IMG/VR virus record: IMGVR_UViG_3300043171_000116 | Location: 1-31,805 of that record | Length of the DNA: 31,805 nt | Direction: 5' to 3' (one strand) | Source: a virus | Taxonomy: Duplodnaviria; Caudoviricetes | Shown: piece after piece, positions 5,350-29,750 of the stretch | Position numbering within the stretch: position 1 is the first letter of the stretch | How the letters are laid out: every line of letters starts with the position of its first letter | Translations under genes and position numbers: made by a program | Notes under the pieces: generated by a model | Told to the model about the DNA's origin: nothing | What the model saw: only the letters and a program-made list of their open reading frames with translations | Databases searched by the model: none

Positions 5350-5517
5350 ATGGATGATAAATTATATAGTGTAAATCAGCTTATGGAAAAGTTTGATTGT
5401 AGTCGTAGCTTAGTTAATAAGTGGTTTGAACGTGGGCTTGTTAAAACAAAGATAGGTAAATTAACAAGAGTTAAAGAGAAGGATTTAGAGGAGTTTATTG
5501 AAAGTGGAAAAGCTTAA
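5350..5517 (+). CDS. Xis/HTH_17-like DNA-binding protein (55 aa, not in ORF track)
   Basis: MDDKLYSVNQLMEKFDCSRSLVNKWFERGLVKTKIGKLTRVKEKDLEEFI is a typical excisionase-type winged HTH. Confidence 0.8.
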   Translation: MDDKLYSVNQLMEKFDCSRSLVNKWFERGLVKTKIGKLTRVKEKDLEEFIESGKA

Positions 5518-5794
5518 AAAAGAGTTAGAACAAAAGATTTATGAAAAAGGTGTTTTAGATACTGAAATAAAAGGATTACAATTATTGATAAAAGAAAAAG
5601 AATGTCCTTTTGAAATTGATGATATTGTAATTAGTTTTGGAGACAGGGTTGTATTTAAAGGGTTTAAATTAGATAGAGGTTATTGGCAACCTAGAGTTTT
5701 TAAGATTAAGAAAGATGGATCACTCTATTCTAATCCTGTATATGTTAGTAGTTATGGTTTTAATAAATGTGAAAAAGACGGGGTTTATAGATGA
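5498..5794 (+). CDS. hypothetical protein (coiled coil plus SH3-like beta domain)
   Basis: GAGGAG SD; CPFEIDDIV...KIKKDG pattern common in phage proteins. Confidence 0.65.
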   Translation: MKVEKLKKELEQKIYEKGVLDTEIKGLQLLIKEKECPFEIDDIVISFGDRVVFKGFKLDRGYWQPRVFKIKKDGSLYSNPVYVSSYGFNKCEKDGVYR

Positions 5795-5967
5795 CAGAAT
5801 ACGCTAATATAATAAGAGTACCAGAGTCAGAGTTACCAGAGAACACTTTTAAATGTGCTGTATGTTGCGTTAAGCCTGATCGTAAAGGCTGTGCAAAGTT
5901 TGAGTTTGAGCACGGGTTTGATTGTTGCAATGAGAACAATCATTTTTATAGGAAGGTTGACAAATGA
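5791..5967 (+). CDS. small Cys-rich protein (58 aa, not in ORF track)
   Basis: ATGA overlaps at both ends; CAVCC...C...CC. Confidence 0.6.
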   Translation: MTEYANIIRVPESELPENTFKCAVCCVKPDRKGCAKFEFEHGFDCCNENNHFYRKVDK

Positions 5968-6119
5968 GAAACTTATGGACAACAAAAGATATAATGTATT
6001 ACTACGGTAAAACAGGTAGACAAGTTGCTGCCTGGAGAAAAGACGGGTTACGGTGTACCGCGCTAGGATCTGGATATATTTATGAATATAGTGATTTAGT
6101 GGAGTTTCTTAGTGAATGA
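5964..6119 (+). CDS. second Xis-like winged-HTH protein (51 aa, not in ORF track)
   Basis: MRNLWTTKDIMYYYGKTGRQVAAWRKDGL...YIYEYSDLVEFL; AGGAAGG SD. Confidence 0.7.
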   Translation: MRNLWTTKDIMYYYGKTGRQVAAWRKDGLRCTALGSGYIYEYSDLVEFLSE

Positions 6120-6498
6120 AATAATAATACCTCTTAATGATTGGAAGGTTGGAAAGCGTAAGTATAACCTATCTATGAATACATATAGGAACTTACACCA
6201 CCAAATAAGTAGTAAATTAAAGCGTAATTTTAATGAATACATGATTGGATATTGTTTCAAAAAATATGATAGACCAATTAGGATTCATTACACATTATAC
6301 TTTAAGGATCAACGAAAACGGGATCTAATGAACTTTGTTGCTGTTGTTGATAAGTTCGCCCTTGATAGCCTTGTTAAGCGCGGAGTGATAGAAGATGATA
6401 ACTATAGGTATGTTGTAGGTTATACGGTCGAATATGGCGGTAAAAGAGATATGAATTGTATTAAAATGGAGATAGAAGAAGTTGATAGATTTAGTTAA
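6112..6498 (+). CDS. rusA: RusA-like Holliday junction resolvase (copy 2)
   Basis: RKRDLMN...KFALD...GVIEDDN; aligns by eye along its whole length with 960..1334. Confidence 0.8.
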   Translation: MNEIIIPLNDWKVGKRKYNLSMNTYRNLHHQISSKLKRNFNEYMIGYCFKKYDRPIRIHYTLYFKDQRKRDLMNFVAVVDKFALDSLVKRGVIEDDNYRYVVGYTVEYGGKRDMNCIKMEIEEVDRFS

Positions 6499-6814
6499 GT
6501 TACAAAAACAGGTTTGGAATAATACTGTTAGAATGGGTTATACAATCAATAAGAAAACAACTATAAAGAAGTTAAAAGAAGAGTTGAAAGAGTTTAAGCT
6601 ATCAAGGGTTATTCCTAACTTTAGAGCCGAGCATTTATCTAATATAAAAAATAATAGTGATTTTGTATTTAATTTTGAGTGTCATGTAAAACATTCTGAA
6701 CATGATGAGATCCCAGATATGTTTTTTGTATTGCTATCTTATTGTGAACAAAATAATATAGACTTTGAAACCCTGGTTATGAATAAATTAAAATACAATA
6801 AGTATAGGGATTAA
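6482..6814 (+). CDS. MazG-like all-alpha NTP pyrophosphohydrolase
   Basis: KLKEELKEF ... DEIPDMFFVLL ... IDFETLVMNKLKYNKYR (EExxE / ExxD motifs). Confidence 0.7.
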   Translation: MIDLVKLQKQVWNNTVRMGYTINKKTTIKKLKEELKEFKLSRVIPNFRAEHLSNIKNNSDFVFNFECHVKHSEHDEIPDMFFVLLSYCEQNNIDFETLVMNKLKYNKYRD

Positions 6815-8190: not shown

Positions 8191-8220
8191 ATTATACTAT
8201 ACAAAGGTTAAGTATTGCAA
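8191..8220 (-). promoter_or_regulatory. sigma70-type promoter
   Basis: TTGCAA-18 bp-TATAAT, back-to-back with the plus-strand promoter. Confidence 0.6.
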
Positions 8221-8278: not shown

Positions 8279-8956
8279 ATGGAATTAGTAGAATACAAAC
8301 ATAACCAAGTGTTTTGTGATAGTTCAACAGTTGCTAAAAAATTTAATATACAACATGCAAAGGTTGTAAGAACTATCGAGACTTTAGCAGACAGATTAAG
8401 GGTGACAAATTGTCATGCTAAAATAGAGAAGTTTGAAAAGACTTATAGGAATCAAACTTTTACAGCATACTTAATGGATAGAGAATTTTTTAGTATGCTA
8501 TGTATGAGGTTTAATAATGATAAGGCTCTTGAATGGCAAATAAAGTTTAATAATGCTTTTTATGAAATGGAAGATAGAATAATAAAATCTATCAATAATA
8601 AATCAGACACCACCTTTATTGAAGCTAGACAACAAACTAAATTAGGTAGACGAGAAGAAACAGATGTTATTAAAGATTTTGTAGATTATGCAACAGAACA
8701 AGGTAGTAAGAATGCAAAGTTTTACTATAAGCATATTACTAATTCTACATACAAGGCACTTGAATTAATGATACATAAGAAACCAGCGTTAAGAGATACT
8801 TTAGATATATATCAACTGTCAGAATTATTACTAGCTGAGAGAGTAGCAAAAAACAGTCTTAAGAAGTATATGGATTTAGGTCGAGGCTACAAAGATATAT
8901 ATAAGAGTGTAGCAGAAGATCTAATAGTGTTTGGTAATAGTTTAAAATTAAACTAA
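8279..8956 (+). CDS. Rha-family phage regulatory protein
   Basis: DSSTVAKKFNIQHAKVVRTIE ... YLMDREFFSMLCMRF..KALEWQIKFNNAFYEME. Confidence 0.9.
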   Translation: MELVEYKHNQVFCDSSTVAKKFNIQHAKVVRTIETLADRLRVTNCHAKIEKFEKTYRNQTFTAYLMDREFFSMLCMRFNNDKALEWQIKFNNAFYEMEDRIIKSINNKSDTTFIEARQQTKLGRREETDVIKDFVDYATEQGSKNAKFYYKHITNSTYKALELMIHKKPALRDTLDIYQLSELLLAERVAKNSLKKYMDLGRGYKDIYKSVAEDLIVFGNSLKLN

Positions 8957-8965
8957 GGAGATAGG

Positions 8966-9139
8966 ATGAAGAAATTAAAAAGAATTTTCCAATTAAGATT
9001 ATTAATATGGAGAGATCAGAGCGGAATATGTTTTAAGGTAGGGAGATCTTATGGTGGGGGATGTTGGGAAACATATGTTCCTAAAAAAAGACCATTCTAT
9101 TATATTATCCCTTTATTTGCTGTTAGAGAGGTGGGATAG
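8966..9139 (+). CDS. small basic hypothetical protein (57 aa, not in ORF track)
   Basis: TAAGGAGATAGG-ATG; fills the gap; candidate sRNA target. Confidence 0.65.
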   Translation: MKKLKRIFQLRLLIWRDQSGICFKVGRSYGGGCWETYVPKKRPFYYIIPLFAVREVG

Positions 9140-9140
9140 A

Positions 9141-9410
9141 ATGAAGAAGTGTATTAATAAGTCATGCAAGGAATATGATATAACAGAAGACAATAATTGC
9201 GAGGCGTTTTATAATGTAACAGATAACGAGTGCGGAATATATTTAGAAGCTACTTGTAAGTACACATACAACAATACTCATGATACTTTTGATTCAGAAT
9301 GTATGTTAATACTAGATTTAGTAACAGATATTAGTGACTGGAAATGTTGTCCTTGCGGTAAAACAATAGAGATAATAGGTCAATCCCCTATATTGGGGCT
9401 GGAGGGGTAA
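9141..9410 (+). CDS. Cys-rich protein (start revised to MKKCIN)
   Basis: GAGGTGG SD; many Cys, WKCCPCGKTI. Confidence 0.65.
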   Translation: MKKCINKSCKEYDITEDNNCEAFYNVTDNECGIYLEATCKYTYNNTHDTFDSECMLILDLVTDISDWKCCPCGKTIEIIGQSPILGLEG

Positions 9411-9601
9411 TGAGTACAATATATAAGATAGAAATGGATGTAGTGTCTGATTGGGTAAAACTATCAAAAGAGGAAGTTTCAACAGCTTTAATAAATATGA
9501 TCAATTCTCAAACTAATTATGTTTTAAGAGTATCTGGAACAGTTAAAGTTAATCAACACAAACAAATACAAGCACCTATAATAAAATTGGAGGAGAAATA
9601 A
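9410..9601 (+). CDS. hypothetical protein
   Basis: GGAGGGG SD, TAATG coupling. Confidence 0.65.
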   Translation: MSTIYKIEMDVVSDWVKLSKEEVSTALINMINSQTNYVLRVSGTVKVNQHKQIQAPIIKLEEK

Positions 9602-9602
9602 G

Positions 9603-9773
9603 ATGTATTTAGATTATGAATACACATGCAATAAATGCAAAACTGATTATATAGGTGAGTCTGATATTGATGATTTGCCAGAATCAAAAACAATAACATG
9701 TGAAGAGTGCGGTCACAAAATGGATGTGCAAATTGATATTGATGTTATTGTCAATGTTAGCTCGGCAAGTTAG
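9603..9773 (+). CDS. small Zn-ribbon protein (56 aa, not in ORF track)
   Basis: YTCNKC...ITCEECG; GGAGGAG SD. Confidence 0.7.
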   Translation: MYLDYEYTCNKCKTDYIGESDIDDLPESKTITCEECGHKMDVQIDIDVIVNVSSAS

Positions 9774-9839
9774 TTTAAATCAATCCCCTATATTGGGATT
9801 AGAGTAATTAAACAGGGCTTGACCGCCCAAGGAGAGAGT

Positions 9840-10145
9840 ATGAAAGTATTGATGATATTGGTTGTGTTGTTTATGGGGTGTGCTTTGGATAGATCTTATG
9901 ATAGTAACGGCTTATGGGTTTCAAACTGCTTTAATATTAATTTCATCTCTAATAGTACTCTCGTTTTAAACAACAAGATAGATGAAACATTATCCACACA
10001 TAATTATTATATGGATAATGGATATATTTATTTAGAAACAGGATACAGTTACACTAAATATTTTAGACTATATAAGTGGAGTAAAGATGAGTTAATTATT
10101 AGAGATAATAAAACAGGTCTTAACTTTCTATTGATAAAGAAATAG
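9840..10145 (+). CDS. predicted lipoprotein, beta-rich (start revised)
   Basis: AAGGAGAGAGT-ATG; MKVLMILVVLFMG|C lipobox. Confidence 0.7.
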   Translation: MKVLMILVVLFMGCALDRSYDSNGLWVSNCFNINFISNSTLVLNNKIDETLSTHNYYMDNGYIYLETGYSYTKYFRLYKWSKDELIIRDNKTGLNFLLIKK

Positions 10146-17921: not shown

Positions 17922-17939
17922 AATACCGCTTAAATTATG

Positions 17940-18323
17940 TTAAGTAGTTGTCATGATAATAATTGTCGATATGCTAAACCCTAATAAAGCACCTAGAAAG
18001 AAGTTATATATCTTATCAAGAATTGTTTCTGTCTTTTGCTTTTTTAATGATTTCTCTAATTCTGTTATTTGACTTTCCTTGAGACTTATTATTTTTTCGT
18101 ATGACTCCGATGTCATTGTTGAGTTGTTCTGTAATGTCACTATTGCCTTTTCTGAACTTTGTAATATTATCTCGTTCGTTTCCAATAGCTTGTCGGACTT
18201 CTCTGTCTCTATCACTATTTCGTTTGCTTCCTGATCCGTTAGAACCACCTCGCAAAACGCTGTAGATAATAAGGATAAGAATAGCAAGAACACAAATAAT
18301 AATTGTCGTAGTAATAAACGCAT
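17940..18323 (-). CDS. spanin-like protein: signal peptide or possible lipobox, acidic coiled coil, C-terminal TM
   Basis: MRLLLRQLLFVFLLFLSLLSTAF|C ... FFLGALLGFSISTIIIM; follows the holin. Confidence 0.6.
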   Translation of the reverse strand: MRLLLRQLLFVFLLFLSLLSTAFCEVVLTDQEANEIVIETEKSDKLLETNEIILQSSEKAIVTLQNNSTMTSESYEKIISLKESQITELEKSLKKQKTETILDKIYNFFLGALLGFSISTIIIMTTT

Positions 18324-18327
18324 CCAT
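18016..18327 (-). CDS. i-spanin-like protein: N-terminal TM plus basic coiled coil
   Basis: GGAGG SD, TAATG coupling to the holin; IIICVLAILILIIYSVL. Confidence 0.6.
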   Translation of the reverse strand: MDAFITTTIIICVLAILILIIYSVLRGGSNGSGSKRNSDRDREVRQAIGNERDNITKFRKGNSDITEQLNNDIGVIRKNNKSQGKSNNRIREIIKKAKDRNNS

Positions 18328-19455: not shown

Positions 19456-19484
19456 ATATTAACGCTTAACATCTGTTAAGTCAA
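19456..19484 (-). promoter_or_regulatory. promoter of the lysis operon with perfect operator palindrome
   Basis: TTGACT-17 bp-TAATAT; CTTAAC-N4-GTTAAG at 19465-19480. Confidence 0.7.
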
Positions 19485-20942: not shown

Positions 20943-20971
20943 ATAATAACATTAATAACTATATTTGTACA
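20943..20971 (-). promoter_or_regulatory. promoter of the antisense RNA / HD operon
   Basis: TGTACA-17 bp-TATTAT with extended TG; predicted +1 at the start of the a1 hairpin. Confidence 0.55.
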
Positions 20972-21021
20972 TAACGTTTGTTAAGGTGTTTTGTTTTATT
21001 AAATTATCTTACTAATTATTG

Positions 21022-21050: not shown

Positions 21051-21080
21051 ATAAACAGTTAGAGAGCAAAGGGAGATAAG

Positions 21081-21251
21081 ATGATTGAATTAGGAATGAG
21101 AGTAACGGACGGAGATATATGCGGAACAGTTGAGAGTATTAACACAGACCATTATGGGAATACATTCGTATTAGTTGGATGGGGTAAAGAGTTAAACCTT
21201 TACAATAACACAACGGTAAATATTAAACATTTAAGAGAGTTAAACTGGTAA
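21081..21251 (+). CDS. small SH3/KOW-like protein (56 aa, not in ORF track)
   Basis: AAGGGAG SD; MIELGMRVTDGDICGTVESI...VLVGW. Confidence 0.65.
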   Translation: MIELGMRVTDGDICGTVESINTDHYGNTFVLVGWGKELNLYNNTTVNIKHLRELNW

Positions 21252-21325
21252 CAATTGCCCTTCGGGGCTTAATATGATGAGAACTTTCGGTGGTCGTTTA
21301 TTAACCGTTTATTTGTGGGGGATAT

Positions 21326-21457
21326 ATGGATAAGTTAAAAGATAAAATTAAACAGTTTTTTTGTAGACATAAATACGGAAGGTCACATCTTGGATTAGGT
21401 AATAAATGTTTTATGACTATTACTAAGTGTAGTAAGTGTGGAAAGTTGGAGGATTGA
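21326..21457 (+). CDS. DUF1660-like small Zn-binding protein (43 aa)
   Basis: KQFFCRHKY...KCSKCGK. Confidence 0.65.
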   Translation: MDKLKDKIKQFFCRHKYGRSHLGLGNKCFMTITKCSKCGKLED

Positions 21458-21458
21458 T

Positions 21459-21740
21459 ATGGACAAAAAGAAGTTAGATAATTTTCAAGAAGCTATGAAA
21501 CCTATGATAAATCAAAACTTAGAAGGCTTATTGTATGATTTGGATTTATTACCAGAACAATTAAATACTGAGTGTGACGGCAAGAGATATTCTGCAATTA
21601 TTAATATGAAAGAATTGATTGAATCATTAAAGTGTTGTGGTAATTGTGGATGGCATAAGGATACTACATGTCTTCATCCAGAAGATAATTGCGAGCCATT
21701 TAATAAGCTTTTTAACTGGACACCTAAGGCAGTGGGATAA
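21459..21740 (+). CDS. Cys-rich hypothetical protein (start revised)
   Basis: GGAGG SD; LKCCGNC..C..C. Confidence 0.65.
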   Translation: MDKKKLDNFQEAMKPMINQNLEGLLYDLDLLPEQLNTECDGKRYSAIINMKELIESLKCCGNCGWHKDTTCLHPEDNCEPFNKLFNWTPKAVG

Positions 21741-21741
21741 T

Positions 21742-21870
21742 ATGGAAGCTGAAGCAATGGTAGGCGGTATTTTAAGAGGTGGCTATCTAATAGACGGGTT
21801 ATTTATATTTCATGCTGGTACTGTTAGATATGAAGCAAAAGATTTTAGATTAGTAAGGGTATTTGAATGA
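21742..21870 (+). CDS. small hypothetical protein (start revised to MEAEAM)
   Basis: Fills the gap; ATGA coupling to the next gene. Confidence 0.5.
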   Translation: MEAEAMVGGILRGGYLIDGLFIFHAGTVRYEAKDFRLVRVFE

Positions 21871-22058
21871 GTGATAAAGATGAAATAAAACTAAAAAAGT
21901 GCAAATGTGGAAACGAGCACATTAATATTGCTCATGAACATCATAATTTTTCTAGTTGGTGGAGCATTTGGTGCCCTAGATGTTGGCCTAAAACACATAT
22001 TATAAATACAGAAAGAAAAGTAGTCATTAAAGAGTGGAACGATGGGGAGAATAAATGA
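21867..22058 (+). CDS. Lar-like (restriction alleviation) Zn-ribbon protein
   Basis: LKKCKCG...IWCPRC...VIKEWN resembles the Lar pattern LKPCPFCG..C..C..AI..WN. Confidence 0.6.
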   Translation: MSDKDEIKLKKCKCGNEHINIAHEHHNFSSWWSIWCPRCWPKTHIINTERKVVIKEWNDGENK

Positions 22059-22408
22059 AAAGACCAAAAGAATGTTTAAGTCCAAATAAAGAAGATTGTA
22101 TTTTAGATATAGATTGCACTCATTGTCTTTATTGGCAAGATGAATTAACTAACCTAGAGACTTCATTCTATTATATTGATTGTTTATCTTTGGAGATGCC
22201 ACACAATAATCCAGAATTAAAATATATTAAAGATTTTAATACCGAACAGCAAGAAGAGATAGACAAGTTAAAGCGTGGAATAAATAGTCATAAAGCTCAC
22301 TGTGGAACACTTATGACTATGAGTAATATGCAAATGGAAGTAACTAAAACTCTTGGTAACGTTCTACGGGCTAACATGGGCAAACTATATACAGGGGAGG
22401 ATAAATAA
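22055..22408 (+). CDS. Cys-containing hypothetical protein
   Basis: GGGGAG SD, ATGA coupling. Confidence 0.65.
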   Translation: MKRPKECLSPNKEDCILDIDCTHCLYWQDELTNLETSFYYIDCLSLEMPHNNPELKYIKDFNTEQQEEIDKLKRGINSHKAHCGTLMTMSNMQMEVTKTLGNVLRANMGKLYTGEDK

Positions 22409-22560
22409 TGACAGCATGGGAGTACTGCAAGACGCAAGGGGTAACAATGAAGCAATTATCAACTGTTACCGAACAAAGCCTTGAGACGCTTAAGAATTGG
22501 TATCAGAACCCAAAGAAAAGAAAGGTGTTTGAATTAGTTATTAAAGGGATGGATAAATGA
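22408..22560 (+). CDS. small Cro-like HTH protein (50 aa, not in ORF track)
   Basis: MTAWEYCKTQGVTMKQLSTVTEQSLETLKNWY; GGGGAGG SD. Confidence 0.65.
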   Translation: MTAWEYCKTQGVTMKQLSTVTEQSLETLKNWYQNPKKRKVFELVIKGMDK

Positions 22561-22673
22561 AGTTTAAAATCAAGGAAGTAGGAAGTATTATTGTTGGTGT
22601 TTCTATTAAATTAGGACTTATTTTTATGGTCGCAATGATTATTATTGGATTTATTGTAAAGTCTTTGAGTTAG
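22557..22673 (+). CDS. small single-TM membrane protein (38 aa)
   Basis: ATGA coupling; LGLIFMVAMIIIGFIV. Confidence 0.55.
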   Translation: MKFKIKEVGSIIVGVSIKLGLIFMVAMIIIGFIVKSLS

Positions 22674-22701
22674 TGATTAAGGGTATACAAAAGGAGAGAG
22701 T

Positions 22702-22893
22702 ATGAAGAAAGAATTAAAAGAGTTTTTAGATGGATTAACAGAATTGTCATTAAAAACAGGGGTTACGATTGGTGGGTGTGGTTGTTGTGGATCTCCATAT
22801 ACAACTAATGAATCAATAAAAGGGAAATATTCATATAATATTATAGATGATGATGTTGAGGATGTTTGTTGGGATGAATATAAGGAAAGTTAA
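22702..22893 (+). CDS. hypothetical protein with GGCGCCGSP motif
   Basis: AAGGAGAGAGT-ATG. Confidence 0.7.
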   Translation: MKKELKEFLDGLTELSLKTGVTIGGCGCCGSPYTTNESIKGKYSYNIIDDDVEDVCWDEYKES

Positions 22894-22932
22894 CCTATAA
22901 GTTAACAGTATAAGCGTATAAGGAGAACGAGT

Positions 22933-23082
22933 ATGAAGTTTTTAAAACAACTATTCTGTAAACATAAAAATTATACTGTTATGACTACTGGATATGTAGC
23001 AACAGAAACATGCACTACAACTTTTAAACATGAGGGATGTATTTGTAATGATTGCGGGAAAGTATTTGTAAGATATGTTTAA
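22933..23082 (+). CDS. DUF1660-like small Zn-binding protein, second copy (49 aa)
   Basis: KQLFCKHK...CNDCGK; AAGGAG SD. Confidence 0.65.
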   Translation: MKFLKQLFCKHKNYTVMTTGYVATETCTTTFKHEGCICNDCGKVFVRYV

Positions 23083-23105
23083 GGCTATACAGTAAGGAGA
23101 AGTAA

Positions 23106-23270
23106 GTGAAAGAGTTTAAATTAGTTTATGAAGATATATCTTCTATAGAGGATGTTGTTAATAGAGAATTAAAACAAGGGTATGAGTTAAGAGGAAATAT
23201 AATTATTGATGGAGACAGGGATTTTGTGCAAGTCTTAACAAGAGATAAAGAGCCGAAGGAGACACTATGA
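23106..23270 (+). CDS. DUF1737-like small protein (54 aa)
   Basis: VNRELKQGYELRG...FVQVL; AAGGAG SD with GTG start. Confidence 0.6.
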   Translation: MKEFKLVYEDISSIEDVVNRELKQGYELRGNIIIDGDRDFVQVLTRDKEPKETL

Positions 23271-23434
23271 ATAGATGGAGACTATTAGAGAAGAGGAAGA
23301 AGCTGGAATGTCAAAGAAAAGAGATGCAATTTATAAATGATAGTTTCTTGGATAAATGGAATACTAGAGAAATGATTAAAGAAGAGTTAAGAGCTTTTGG
23401 TAATAGATTAAACATTTACGTTACTACTGAATAA
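23267..23434 (+). CDS. small hypothetical protein (55 aa)
   Basis: AAGGAG SD, ATGA coupling. Confidence 0.55.
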   Translation: MNRWRLLEKRKKLECQRKEMQFINDSFLDKWNTREMIKEELRAFGNRLNIYVTTE

Positions 23435-23439
23435 CCAAC

Positions 23440-23457
23440 GCCCTCAGTTAAGAGGGC
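23440..23457. terminator. hairpin between convergent genes
   Basis: GCCCTC-AGTTAA-GAGGGC; weak U tracts. Confidence 0.45.
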
Positions 23458-26484: not shown

Positions 26485-27045
26485 TTATTCAAAGGCTTTG
26501 TTAAATGCACTCGGCATATTATCCACCTTTGTATTTCCATTTAAATTATCTCTACTACCACTTAGGGCGGTTTCAATCTTTTTAGTTTGACCTTCTTTTG
26601 CAGTTTCTATTCTGCCGTCTAAAAAGGTCTTGTATTTCTCAACAGATTCAACACTATTAAACTCTAGTGCTTCAATTTCTTCTGCTGTAAATCCTAATTC
26701 AAGAGCCTTAACTCTTACATTAAAATTATTCTCTTTCTTTGCAAACTCAGCCTTATTATTTAAGAAGTCATTTTGTGCATCTTCATGCGCTTTCTTTTCT
26801 TCTTGTACTAATCTCTCTGTTGTTTCCTTTTCTGTCTCGTTCGCTTTTAATAGCTCATCATATTGTGTTTTCTGTGTTGAATTAGCAGTATTTAAACCTG
26901 CGATCTCTTTCTTTTGAGTCTCGTTTGATTCAATTAGCCCTTTCATTGTTGCTTGTAACTCTTCCATTGTTGGAGTAGTTTCTTGCGCTTCTGTAGTTTC
27001 TGCTACTTCGCCTGTCCCATCGACCTGCTTTGTCTCATCTGCCAT
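26485..27045 (-). CDS. capsid scaffolding protein
   Basis: Acidic coiled-coil protein directly upstream of the capsid gene. Confidence 0.8.
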   Translation of the reverse strand: MADETKQVDGTGEVAETTEAQETTPTMEELQATMKGLIESNETQKKEIAGLNTANSTQKTQYDELLKANETEKETTERLVQEEKKAHEDAQNDFLNNKAEFAKKENNFNVRVKALELGFTAEEIEALEFNSVESVEKYKTFLDGRIETAKEGQTKKIETALSGSRDNLNGNTKVDNMPSAFNKAFE

Positions 27046-27073: not shown

Positions 27074-27102
27074 ATTATATACCTACACGCATGTTAAGTC
27101 AA
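27074..27102 (-). promoter_or_regulatory. strong promoter of the scaffold-capsid operon
   Basis: TTGACT-17 bp-TATAAT; operator-like sites at 27059-27074 and 27083-27098. Confidence 0.8.
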
Positions 27103-27118
27103 ATAAACGCTTGGACAT

Positions 27119-27186
27119 AAAAAATGCCCGACATAATCTAATATATCGGGCGTAGAGAAAAAGATATCTAAGGAGATAGATATGAT
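27119..27186 (-). ncRNA. candidate ~70-nt anti-SD small RNA with intrinsic terminator
   Basis: Own promoter (27192-27220), UCAUAUCUAUCUCCUUAG, terminator ACGCCCGA..TCGGGCAT followed by a T run; no ORF. Confidence 0.7.
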
Positions 27187-27191
27187 AATTT

Positions 27192-27220
27192 AGAATATAC
27201 TTTTTAGATGTGTTTGTCAA
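27192..27220 (-). promoter_or_regulatory. promoter of the small RNA
   Basis: TTGACA-17 bp-TATTCT. Confidence 0.75.
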
Positions 27221-27222
27221 AC

Positions 27223-28224
27223 TTACTTGAATAATACTTCACCATAACGATTAACTCTAAGGTTTTGCTTTTCTGCGTACTCTTTAAAGTTCTGAAACGG
27301 TACTACTTTATTTTTTCCTGTCTTAACGTCCCTTTGTATTCTTGATTCTGGCGGGAACTCTGGATCTAATGTTATTGTAGTAGATCTATCATTAATATCC
27401 CATTTAGCCACACCGGATCTATGAGCAAAAGCCCTTTGACCGTTAGGGAATAAAAACTTCCCTTCTTTATTAGCAATTTGACCGTCCATATTTGCACTCT
27501 GACTTCTTGTACGATCATCAAGAGTTTCTATCAATTGTAAGTCGCTCTCGACTATCGGCTGCTGGTTAATCCATTGGTCGGTTTCTGCTGTAGACCTCAT
27601 CCGTAAAACCTCAGTCCTTAGCGTCCTTGTCGTTCTATATGTTTGACCCTTTCTAAGTGCTTTATCTGCTATCCATTTACCACTAGAATCTCTATAACCT
27701 AATGTTATATCTAACTGTTTGTTTATGTTCGGCAAACTTAAGCCTTGCTCCACGCCACTTACAATATTAGTAAATACTTGTTCTATATCAATATTACGGC
27801 TAGTTTTCATCTTGGCAGCATTAATCAATTTAGATAGAGGGTAGTTAATAGCCTGTTCAAACTGTTTCTTTGTATATCGGGGCAATTTAACCAGGTAGCC
27901 TTCTGAGATACCCTCGTTGGTTATTGTATATAGTGATTCAAAGTAAGACGTTCTGTAATCTTCTGCATATACTTGTTTACTAAAATTATCTTTCTTCAAG
28001 TAGTCCGGTCTTAACTCTTCGTTTAGATCTTTAGCAAACTTTTCTGTTCTTCCTGCTCTGTCACTAAACCACTCGGTATTGTCACCAGCTTTATCAGTTA
28101 CTTTCATTGCAGCACGTTGGGATTTATCACGTATAGAGTCAAAGATAATAGCTATCTCGTTAATTATAGCCTTATCTCTTATAGTTCTAGCTCTAAATAT
28201 TTCATTCTCGTATTTATTTGGCAT
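27223..28224 (-). CDS. minor head morphogenesis protein (SPP1 gp7 / Mu gpF family)
   Basis: RTLRTEVLR, TLDDRTR, MDGQ, DINDRST (variant of NCRC); follows the portal. Confidence 0.85.
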   Translation of the reverse strand: MPNKYENEIFRARTIRDKAIINEIAIIFDSIRDKSQRAAMKVTDKAGDNTEWFSDRAGRTEKFAKDLNEELRPDYLKKDNFSKQVYAEDYRTSYFESLYTITNEGISEGYLVKLPRYTKKQFEQAINYPLSKLINAAKMKTSRNIDIEQVFTNIVSGVEQGLSLPNINKQLDITLGYRDSSGKWIADKALRKGQTYRTTRTLRTEVLRMRSTAETDQWINQQPIVESDLQLIETLDDRTRSQSANMDGQIANKEGKFLFPNGQRAFAHRSGVAKWDINDRSTTITLDPEFPPESRIQRDVKTGKNKVVPFQNFKEYAEKQNLRVNRYGEVLFK

Positions 28225-29721: not shown

Positions 29722-29750
29722 AGCTTAACATAAGTATAGTACTTTGTCAT
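29722..29750 (-). promoter_or_regulatory. putative internal promoter of the portal gene
   Basis: ATGACA-17 bp-TAAGCT with extended TG; overlaps operator-like sites. Confidence 0.5.

Follow-up and report, generated by a model that had tools for sequence, protein, structure and literature searches.

A clade-conserved small-RNA cassette with an anti-Shine-Dalgarno-type seed, predicted in an uncultured tailed phage

The locus between the minor head and scaffold genes

On the minus strand of IMGVR_UViG_3300043171_000116, a promoter, a predicted small RNA (sRNA) and an intrinsic terminator follow one another between the gene for a minor head protein (MuF) and a probable scaffold gene. The window analysed here (31,805 nt) is the entire linear virus record, with a completeness estimate of 49%, so targets of the sRNA may be absent from it. 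The features are listed below.

27223..28224, minus strand: minor head protein (MuF; phrog_115, PF04233), the gene upstream of the sRNA
27192..27220, minus strand: sigma-70-type sRNA promoter TTGACA-17-TATTCT, directly 3' of the MuF stop codon
27117..27186, minus strand: predicted sRNA of about 68-70 nt (predicted ends) with two hairpins and no ORF
27164..27183, minus strand: hairpin 1, a 7-bp stem with the anti-SD loop UCUCCU at 27176-27171
27152..27163, minus strand: unpaired pyrimidine linker, the position of the seed in relatives
27119..27151, minus strand: intrinsic terminator, a 10-bp stem and U tract
27074..27102, minus strand: separate scaffold-capsid promoter TTGACT-17-TATAAT, stronger, following the sRNA terminator
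26485..27045, minus strand: probable scaffold protein, the gene downstream of the sRNA, so called because it precedes the major head gene
8953..8968, plus strand: start region of a 57-aa gene after Rha, with a 12-nt match to the sRNA

The sRNA promoter has its -35 TTGACA at 27220-27215 and its -10 TATTCT at 27197-27192, separated by a 17-nt spacer (10/12 consensus). Transcription is predicted to start at A27186, with the terminator hairpin 35 nt on; this hairpin has 10 pairs (27151-27126) and is followed by an A and six U at 27124-27119. No ORF with an RBS was found on the sRNA strand. These observations agree with the first-pass annotation, which had described a TTGACA-17-TATTCT promoter about 35 nt ahead of a strong terminator, without an ORF, between the minor head and scaffold genes, and had given the start of the transcript as it is found here. 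Promoter-like sites alone were not enriched in the region (41 found, 39.6 in shuffles); out of 100 dinucleotide shuffles of the window, one produced the unit of promoter and terminator and none produced it with the anti-SD included. The window holds a single promoter-terminator pair of this kind.

The predicted fold of the sRNA consists of two hairpins at -22.1 kcal/mol (z = -5.7), and none of 200 shuffles was equally stable. The seed, CUAUCUCCU, occupies 27179-27171, and an anti-AUG adjoins it on the 5' side. In the predicted fold UCUCCU is unpaired and CUA is paired in the 7-bp stem, leaving 6/9 nt of the seed unpaired. The earlier description of the transcript as the reverse complement of an RBS plus start codon holds for the sequence, with the qualification that the anti-SD lies partly within the hairpin. 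Among contigs covering the region, a minor variant has U-A in place of an A-U pair of the terminator stem (27131/27146), a compensatory change, and a variant contig differs at linker base 27153, a change that goes toward a second anti-SD.

The scaffold promoter overlaps a palindromic motif that the sRNA promoter does not have. The seven scaffold promoters examined scored 9-12/12 against CTTAAC-N4-GTTAAG and the five sRNA promoters scored 5-6/12, so the sRNA probably stands outside that control. Copies scoring 10-12/12 in the window lie at 27083-27098, 29724-29739, 17929-17944, 19465-19480, 20970-20985 and 8197-8212, where the portal, scaffold, neck and lysis modules begin or close by, and the palindrome is also present at the scaffold promoters of the related records G001, G002, G003 and L012. 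The motif, counted without a shuffle control and with weaker copies inside genes, is probably a late-module operator.

The phage is tailed, with 34% GC, and its record was found in three marine sediment metagenome runs. Terminase, portal, minor head, major head, neck and tail genes lie on the minus strand, and these virion modules are broken up by opposite-strand clusters of small genes (5350-6814, 8279-10145 and 21081-23434) whose starts have recurring upstream words in common, resembling exchangeable cassettes. A blastn search of the window against cultured phages gave no match, the portal homologues were only about 25% identical, and the scaffold protein had no family match. The host is tentatively a spirochaete, as the two named entries among 21 SSB matches are Spirochaetales and Spirochaetaceae; a search for SSB in plasmids gave no pointer to the host. 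Gene 9840 presumably resembles a lipoprotein, judging by its motif. Two overlapping ORFs in different frames at 17940-18327, beside a holin-like gene, resemble a spanin pair and, with no family match to either ORF, suggest a host with an outer membrane. The genome also has two RusA-like resolvase genes (960-1334 and 6112-6498).

Conservation of the cassette in related phages

Alignment of 46 of the 78 MuF homologues yielded 10 distinct related records, six of which span the interval from MuF to the scaffold gene. Equivalent cassettes were found in four of these six (L006, L012, G001 and G002), of which L012 and G001 are nearly identical, leaving about three independent relatives only. The cassette is absent from L007 and G003, both of which span the interval. 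The contigs L008, L010, L011 and L013 stop before the scaffold gene and were excluded from this count; no cassette was found in the sequence examined for them.

The cassettes of the relatives are 79-95 nt in overall length and comprise a TTGACA promoter, a predicted transcript starting with AUCUUU, a hairpin, a pyrimidine linker with the seed, and a U-tailed terminator. The -35 TTGACA is perfect in 5/5 cassettes, at fixed spacing to the same first bases, and CUAUCUCCU is kept in 4/5, with a variant seed in L006. The sequences of hairpin 1 and of the terminator vary among members, and hairpin 1 is unrelated between them. The seed is wholly unpaired in the predicted folds of all four relatives, and an anti-AUG stands at the spacing of a true start in the window, G001 and L012. 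The check on conservation of promoter and anti-SD that had been proposed for this locus came out in favour of the sRNA, with both present in 4/6 spanning relatives. A three-sequence alignment of the terminator showed two double changes, which are weak evidence since L006 is slightly out of register.

The position of the cassette differs between genomes. In G001 and L012 it lies behind accessory genes and ahead of the scaffold promoter. In G002 it follows MuF and faces convergent genes; the scaffold gene there is about 3.5 kb away and is preceded by a terminator-like hairpin and a promoter of its own. In L007 MuF leads straight to the scaffold promoter, and G003 shares a 15-nt flank with G001 and lacks the cassette. 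These differences in position and presence indicate that the cassette moves and disappears as a block. The first-pass annotation had allowed that the hairpin might be only the terminator of the portal operon; a cassette away from the scaffold gene in one relative and absent from two argues that it is more than that.

A reading with no functional RNA at all, in which the locus combines a portal-operon terminator, the fossil of an inverted accessory-gene start and an incidental promoter, or in which hairpin 1 is a DNA operator, is improbable on this evidence. Inverted accessory genes with such starts do occupy the interval in G001, G002, G003, L010, L012 and L013, the window, G001 and L012 show RBS-ATG on their plus strand, and hairpin 1 forms a perfect inverted repeat (7-6-7). 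However, this reading is opposed by the invariant -35 and its fixed spacing, by a U tract that faces the sRNA strand only and by the compensatory change within the terminator stem. Plus-strand peptides would have 3, 6 or 7 codons or are absent, hairpin 1 has no second copy in the window besides being unrelated between members, the scaffold gene of G002 has a separate hairpin and promoter, and L007 needs no terminator here. Origin of the sRNA from an inverted accessory-gene start would have supplied the complementarity for free, and the retention of promoter, terminator and open seed argues that the predicted sRNA was kept after any such origin.

Four further candidates were tried and rejected. 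For a peptide from the cassette, the sRNA strand has no RBS and the opposite-strand peptides are not conserved. A plus-strand CsrA sponge would have no plus-strand promoter, and GGA is not in a loop in the relatives. For a capsid-gene attenuator, the capsid genes have their own promoter and the G002 cassette faces convergent genes. Against cis-antisense action in the window, the closest cluster of plus-strand genes stops at the terminator at 23440.

We searched for further members by pattern and by homology. A scan with the 18-nt hairpin pattern gave four chance matches in unrelated contexts, a scan for promoter plus seed gave eight loci (two already known, six without a terminator), and a scan for promoter plus transcript start gave 94 loci, with the architecture only in G001 and G002. 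Queries with the scaffold and capsid genes against viral contigs gave no further members, nor did a scan of genome collections, and the pattern scans returned no cassette outside this clade. Two further contigs from other runs have the same promoter followed by different sequence. No Rfam model reached its gathering score in the window or in seven related loci; six sub-threshold matches (best E 0.23) were obtained, the best of them to SdsR/RyeB at 21.1 bits against a gathering threshold of 38, mostly over the terminator. No match was found in the six supplementary files of a viral candidate-RNA catalogue (PMC10690425) that were covered. As judged from sequence, the cassette is a real, clade-conserved small-RNA unit of no described family, and the window very probably carries a functional small RNA.

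Other features were noted in the relatives. Several hold small-gene clusters between MuF and the scaffold gene comparable to those of the window. The MuF of L001:9393-11036 (the same as L010) has an additional C-terminal domain, which brings it to 547 aa, and the C-terminus that MuF usually has recurs as a separate copy immediately downstream; since some long MuF homologues carry PF03496, this extension is likely a MuF-fused ADP-ribosyltransferase-type domain. At G002:C1:36061 and L010:5895, both on the minus strand, a strong promoter is followed by tRNA-like sequence.

Candidate targets of the sRNA

The first-pass annotation had proposed the RBS of the 57-aa gene at 8966 as the candidate target of a trans-acting sRNA. 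The perfect 12-nt complementarity to 8953-8964 on which this rested is exact and is the sole 12-mer match in the window; a weaker match claimed for an AAGGAGA site at 21071-21086 proved to be to GGGAGA. A 12-nt match to the 5' 35 nt of the sRNA arose in 51/200 shuffled windows, so the match alone is within chance. We ranked interactions over the phage starts, and 8966 came 1/115 on the bare seed duplex and 6/69 (-14.9 kcal/mol) with folding of the full-length sRNA. Other genomes matched equally: 12-nt matches to the window sRNA were also present in G001, at the post-rha junction, and in the cassette-less G003, and the best partners of each RNA in its own genome were no stronger than those in other genomes. 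The top 10 partners were mostly non-homologous between genomes.

Silencing of one dedicated target at the junction of rha and the next gene, in the manner of c4, appears decidedly unlikely. It would fit the sole 12-mer match and best bare duplex in the window and also G001, where the RNA of G001 itself has the post-rha gene as its best partner (1/53) and the window sRNA pairs with the same junction at -20.2 kcal/mol. However, beside the rank of 6/69 with folding and the frequency of such matches in shuffles, the ORFs after rha are unrelated between the window and G001, and the relatives lack a homologue of the 57-aa ORF. G002, which has terminal repeats, carries the cassette and shows only a 26%-identity partial match to Rha, with no rha junction, and no compensatory change was seen between the seed and the 8966 site. 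As a special single target 8966 is not supported, although it is one plausible member of a modelled target set. What stands of the earlier proposal is an anti-RBS sRNA acting in trans, for which the conserved cassettes, the unpaired seed and the scaffold-independent position speak; 8966 as its distinctive target does not. A three-way-junction guide, with 5' AUCUUU and seed pairing on either side of hairpin 1, occurred in several predicted complexes and singled out no conserved target.

We compared the seed with gene classes. With starts called by script, structural (virion, lysis) genes labelled by eye from PHROG matches, homology and position, and related genes not independent in the counts, GGAGAT starts were found on 0/58 structural genes and 23/164 other genes of the carriers (p = 8e-4). 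GGAGA starts preceded 10/58 structural and 80/164 other genes, and GGAGG and AGGGG starts showed no class skew. Median binding in the own genome was stronger for non-structural than for structural genes in each of three carriers (-8.9 vs -5.7, -9.9 vs -6.7 and -9.1 vs -5.8 kcal/mol; p = 3e-5, 9e-4 and 1.5e-4), and structural genes took 1 of the 45 top-15 partner places in these three.

The skew was modest (AUC 0.60-0.73). With CUCCU held fixed, the natural 5' tetramer ranked 2/256 for class separation (AUC 0.66; 304 starts, four genomes), although the pooled top ranks all contain AUCUCCU, which brings the effective odds closer to 1 in 16. Per genome, the natural tetramer ranked 31, 7 and 6 of 256 in the carriers and 28 in G003; for mean binding strength it ranked 27/256. 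Four distinct seeds each beat most of 100 shuffles, of which 0-5 reached their value, and a 16S-type anti-SD gave no class separation (AUC 0.52, reached by 31/100 shuffles). The skew was weaker in the cassette-less G003 (AUC 0.57 vs 0.68-0.73), where GGAGAT starts were found on 1/23 structural and 7/59 other genes; the presence of this start type without the cassette indicates that the skew predates the sRNA or does not need it. The start motif is loose, as the four bases after GGAG vary.

A seed-type RBS found on non-structural genes and absent from virion genes makes muting of a group likelier than muting of one gene, and the reading we tentatively favour, while holding it short of probable, is that the sRNA would be a group silencer of non-structural phage genes that spares virion genes. 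Host RNA polymerase would make the ~70-nt sRNA from the sigma-70 promoter, and the exposed UCUCCU loop would make first contact with AGGAGA. The weak, AU-rich 7-bp stem would then open and pairing would spread over the SD, spacer and AUG, an extension that the predicted complex of the sRNA with 8966 shows. Loading of 30S would be blocked on a set of non-structural mRNAs, and virion mRNAs would escape. The target start type would be AGGAGA(U)AG..AUG, which is common on the non-structural genes of this phage, and the candidate set is 8966, 4663, 23267, 22702, 21081, 3292 and 19689. The partial sequestration of the seed in the stem in the window counts against this group silencing. If it is true, one RNA would sort phage genes into virion and non-virion by their RBS, a compact translational switch; we found no description in the open-access literature of an RNA that silences a class of its phage's own genes by RBS type.

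It is less likely, indeed unlikely, that the sRNA acts mainly on host mRNAs with AGGAGAU-type starts, whether of a defence gene or in broad host translation, and that virion genes merely avoid the seed. Such targets would be consistent with a seed kept across phages with unrelated accessory genes, with the lack of any preference of the sRNA for its own genome over relatives, and with immediate expression from a near-consensus, host-type promoter without the capsid-module palindrome; avoidance of the seed by virion genes is predicted here too. However, the sRNA would also strike the 23/164 non-structural GGAGAT genes of the phages themselves, and no host genome was found, the spirochaete assignment being only tentative.

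That the sRNA serves as an exclusion RNA, expressed early or in a carrier state to mute early genes both of its own phage and of related phages entering the cell, is very improbable. Predicted binding to the starts of relatives equals that to the own starts, and the patchy cassette sits at a hot spot of accessory genes, as such an RNA might; on the other side, the search for tyrosine or serine integrases gave none in 4/4 records, which are rated 43-64% complete.

Comparison with known systems

At the sequence level the window sRNA has the attributes of base-pairing anti-SD sRNAs, namely its own promoter and intrinsic terminator without an ORF, and a conserved unpaired seed complementary to the RBS, complete in the four relatives and at 6/9 nt in the window. 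LhrC, RsaE and 6C are chromosomal CU-rich sRNAs in which an unpaired C/U motif pairs with the SD of several mRNAs. The window sRNA shares with them an unpaired CU-rich motif; they differ in being chromosomal and in having other motifs, and Rfam gave no sequence match of the window sRNA to sRNAs of this type.

The cuckoo (RSs0680/ar14) sRNAs of Alphaproteobacteria have two to four adjacent hairpins with CCUCCUCCC in each loop, according to the available text of PMC4615179. They resemble the window sRNA in the unpaired anti-SD-like motif in a hairpin loop and in the terminator end. However, in place of two to four CCUCCUCCC hairpins the window sRNA has one seed of another sequence, CUAUCUCCU, which extends over the spacer and AUG, lies in the linker in relatives and is phage-encoded; it gave no match to the cuckoo/ar14 Rfam model. 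The c4 RNA of P1/P7 is likewise phage-encoded, with complementarity in unpaired loops, and acts in trans on mRNA of its own phage around an RBS, as described in the available portion of PMC12197685. That source gives c4 one defined target, ant, whereas no single conserved target of the window sRNA was found. A conserved target upstream of an antirepressor gene, as in c4, is not seen: the best site lies downstream of rha, at a junction absent from G002. The two-hairpin fold is unlike that of c4, and the Rfam C4 models gave no match. In the same portion of PMC12197685, the phage sRNAs described have either a single phage gene or genes of the host as their targets. From its sequence, the window sRNA would act like the CU-rich anti-SD sRNAs and c4, yet it belongs to neither the cuckoo nor the c4 family by their defining features.

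The closest parallel in concept is the SAS of cluster K mycobacteriophages, an extended RBS motif on non-structural genes only, near-invariant over 13 bp and present in 11-19 copies (PMC3203893, available text). The same paper of 2011 asks if an RNA or a protein binds SAS, and reports one reverse copy in four K1 phages. The role of SAS was still called unknown or unverified in 2024/2025 (PMC11373665, PMC12699233), and the available portions of these two papers make no mention of an anti-SAS RNA. Both SAS and the start motif of the window phage are confined to non-structural genes (GGAGAT 0/58 vs 23/164, with labels by eye). In contrast to the near-invariant 13-mer of SAS, the motif of the window phage is loose.

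We examined the right-end non-coding region of the cluster K phages. In Anaya (JF704106), the gap between genes 96 and 97 (L136:29780-29915) contains a long hairpin whose 10-nt loop holds the reverse SAS copy, and an Anaya-type region is common to 193 records. In all 16 of the regions examined (including L138-L151), conserved 5' hairpins come after a -10-like motif, TAGACT. Six of the 16 carry the loop CCUCCUAUCC, the complement of the SAS core, five carry a CU-rich variant and five have none; Pixie has SAS sites and no anti-SAS loop. An alignment of the 11 looped regions showed 31 pairs, six of them with double changes. Rfam gave no match for the region in Anaya or Pixie. Some cluster K records annotate inconsistent ORFs over the multi-hairpin region. 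From these features the region is apparently a promoter-driven multi-hairpin non-coding RNA.

The phages, hosts and RNA sequences of cluster K and the window are unrelated, and the K-phage RNA is longer, so the K1 region is an analogy and not evidence for the window sRNA. The wider idea, that phages put an address in the RBSs of their non-structural genes and that one sRNA reads the address and shuts the gene class at translation, with the window and K1 as independent examples, is possible but doubtful. If it is true, the SAS motifs, unexplained since 2011, would gain a reader. The window phage is uncultured, but cluster K1 mycobacteriophages are in culture on M. smegmatis and would allow the idea a direct test.
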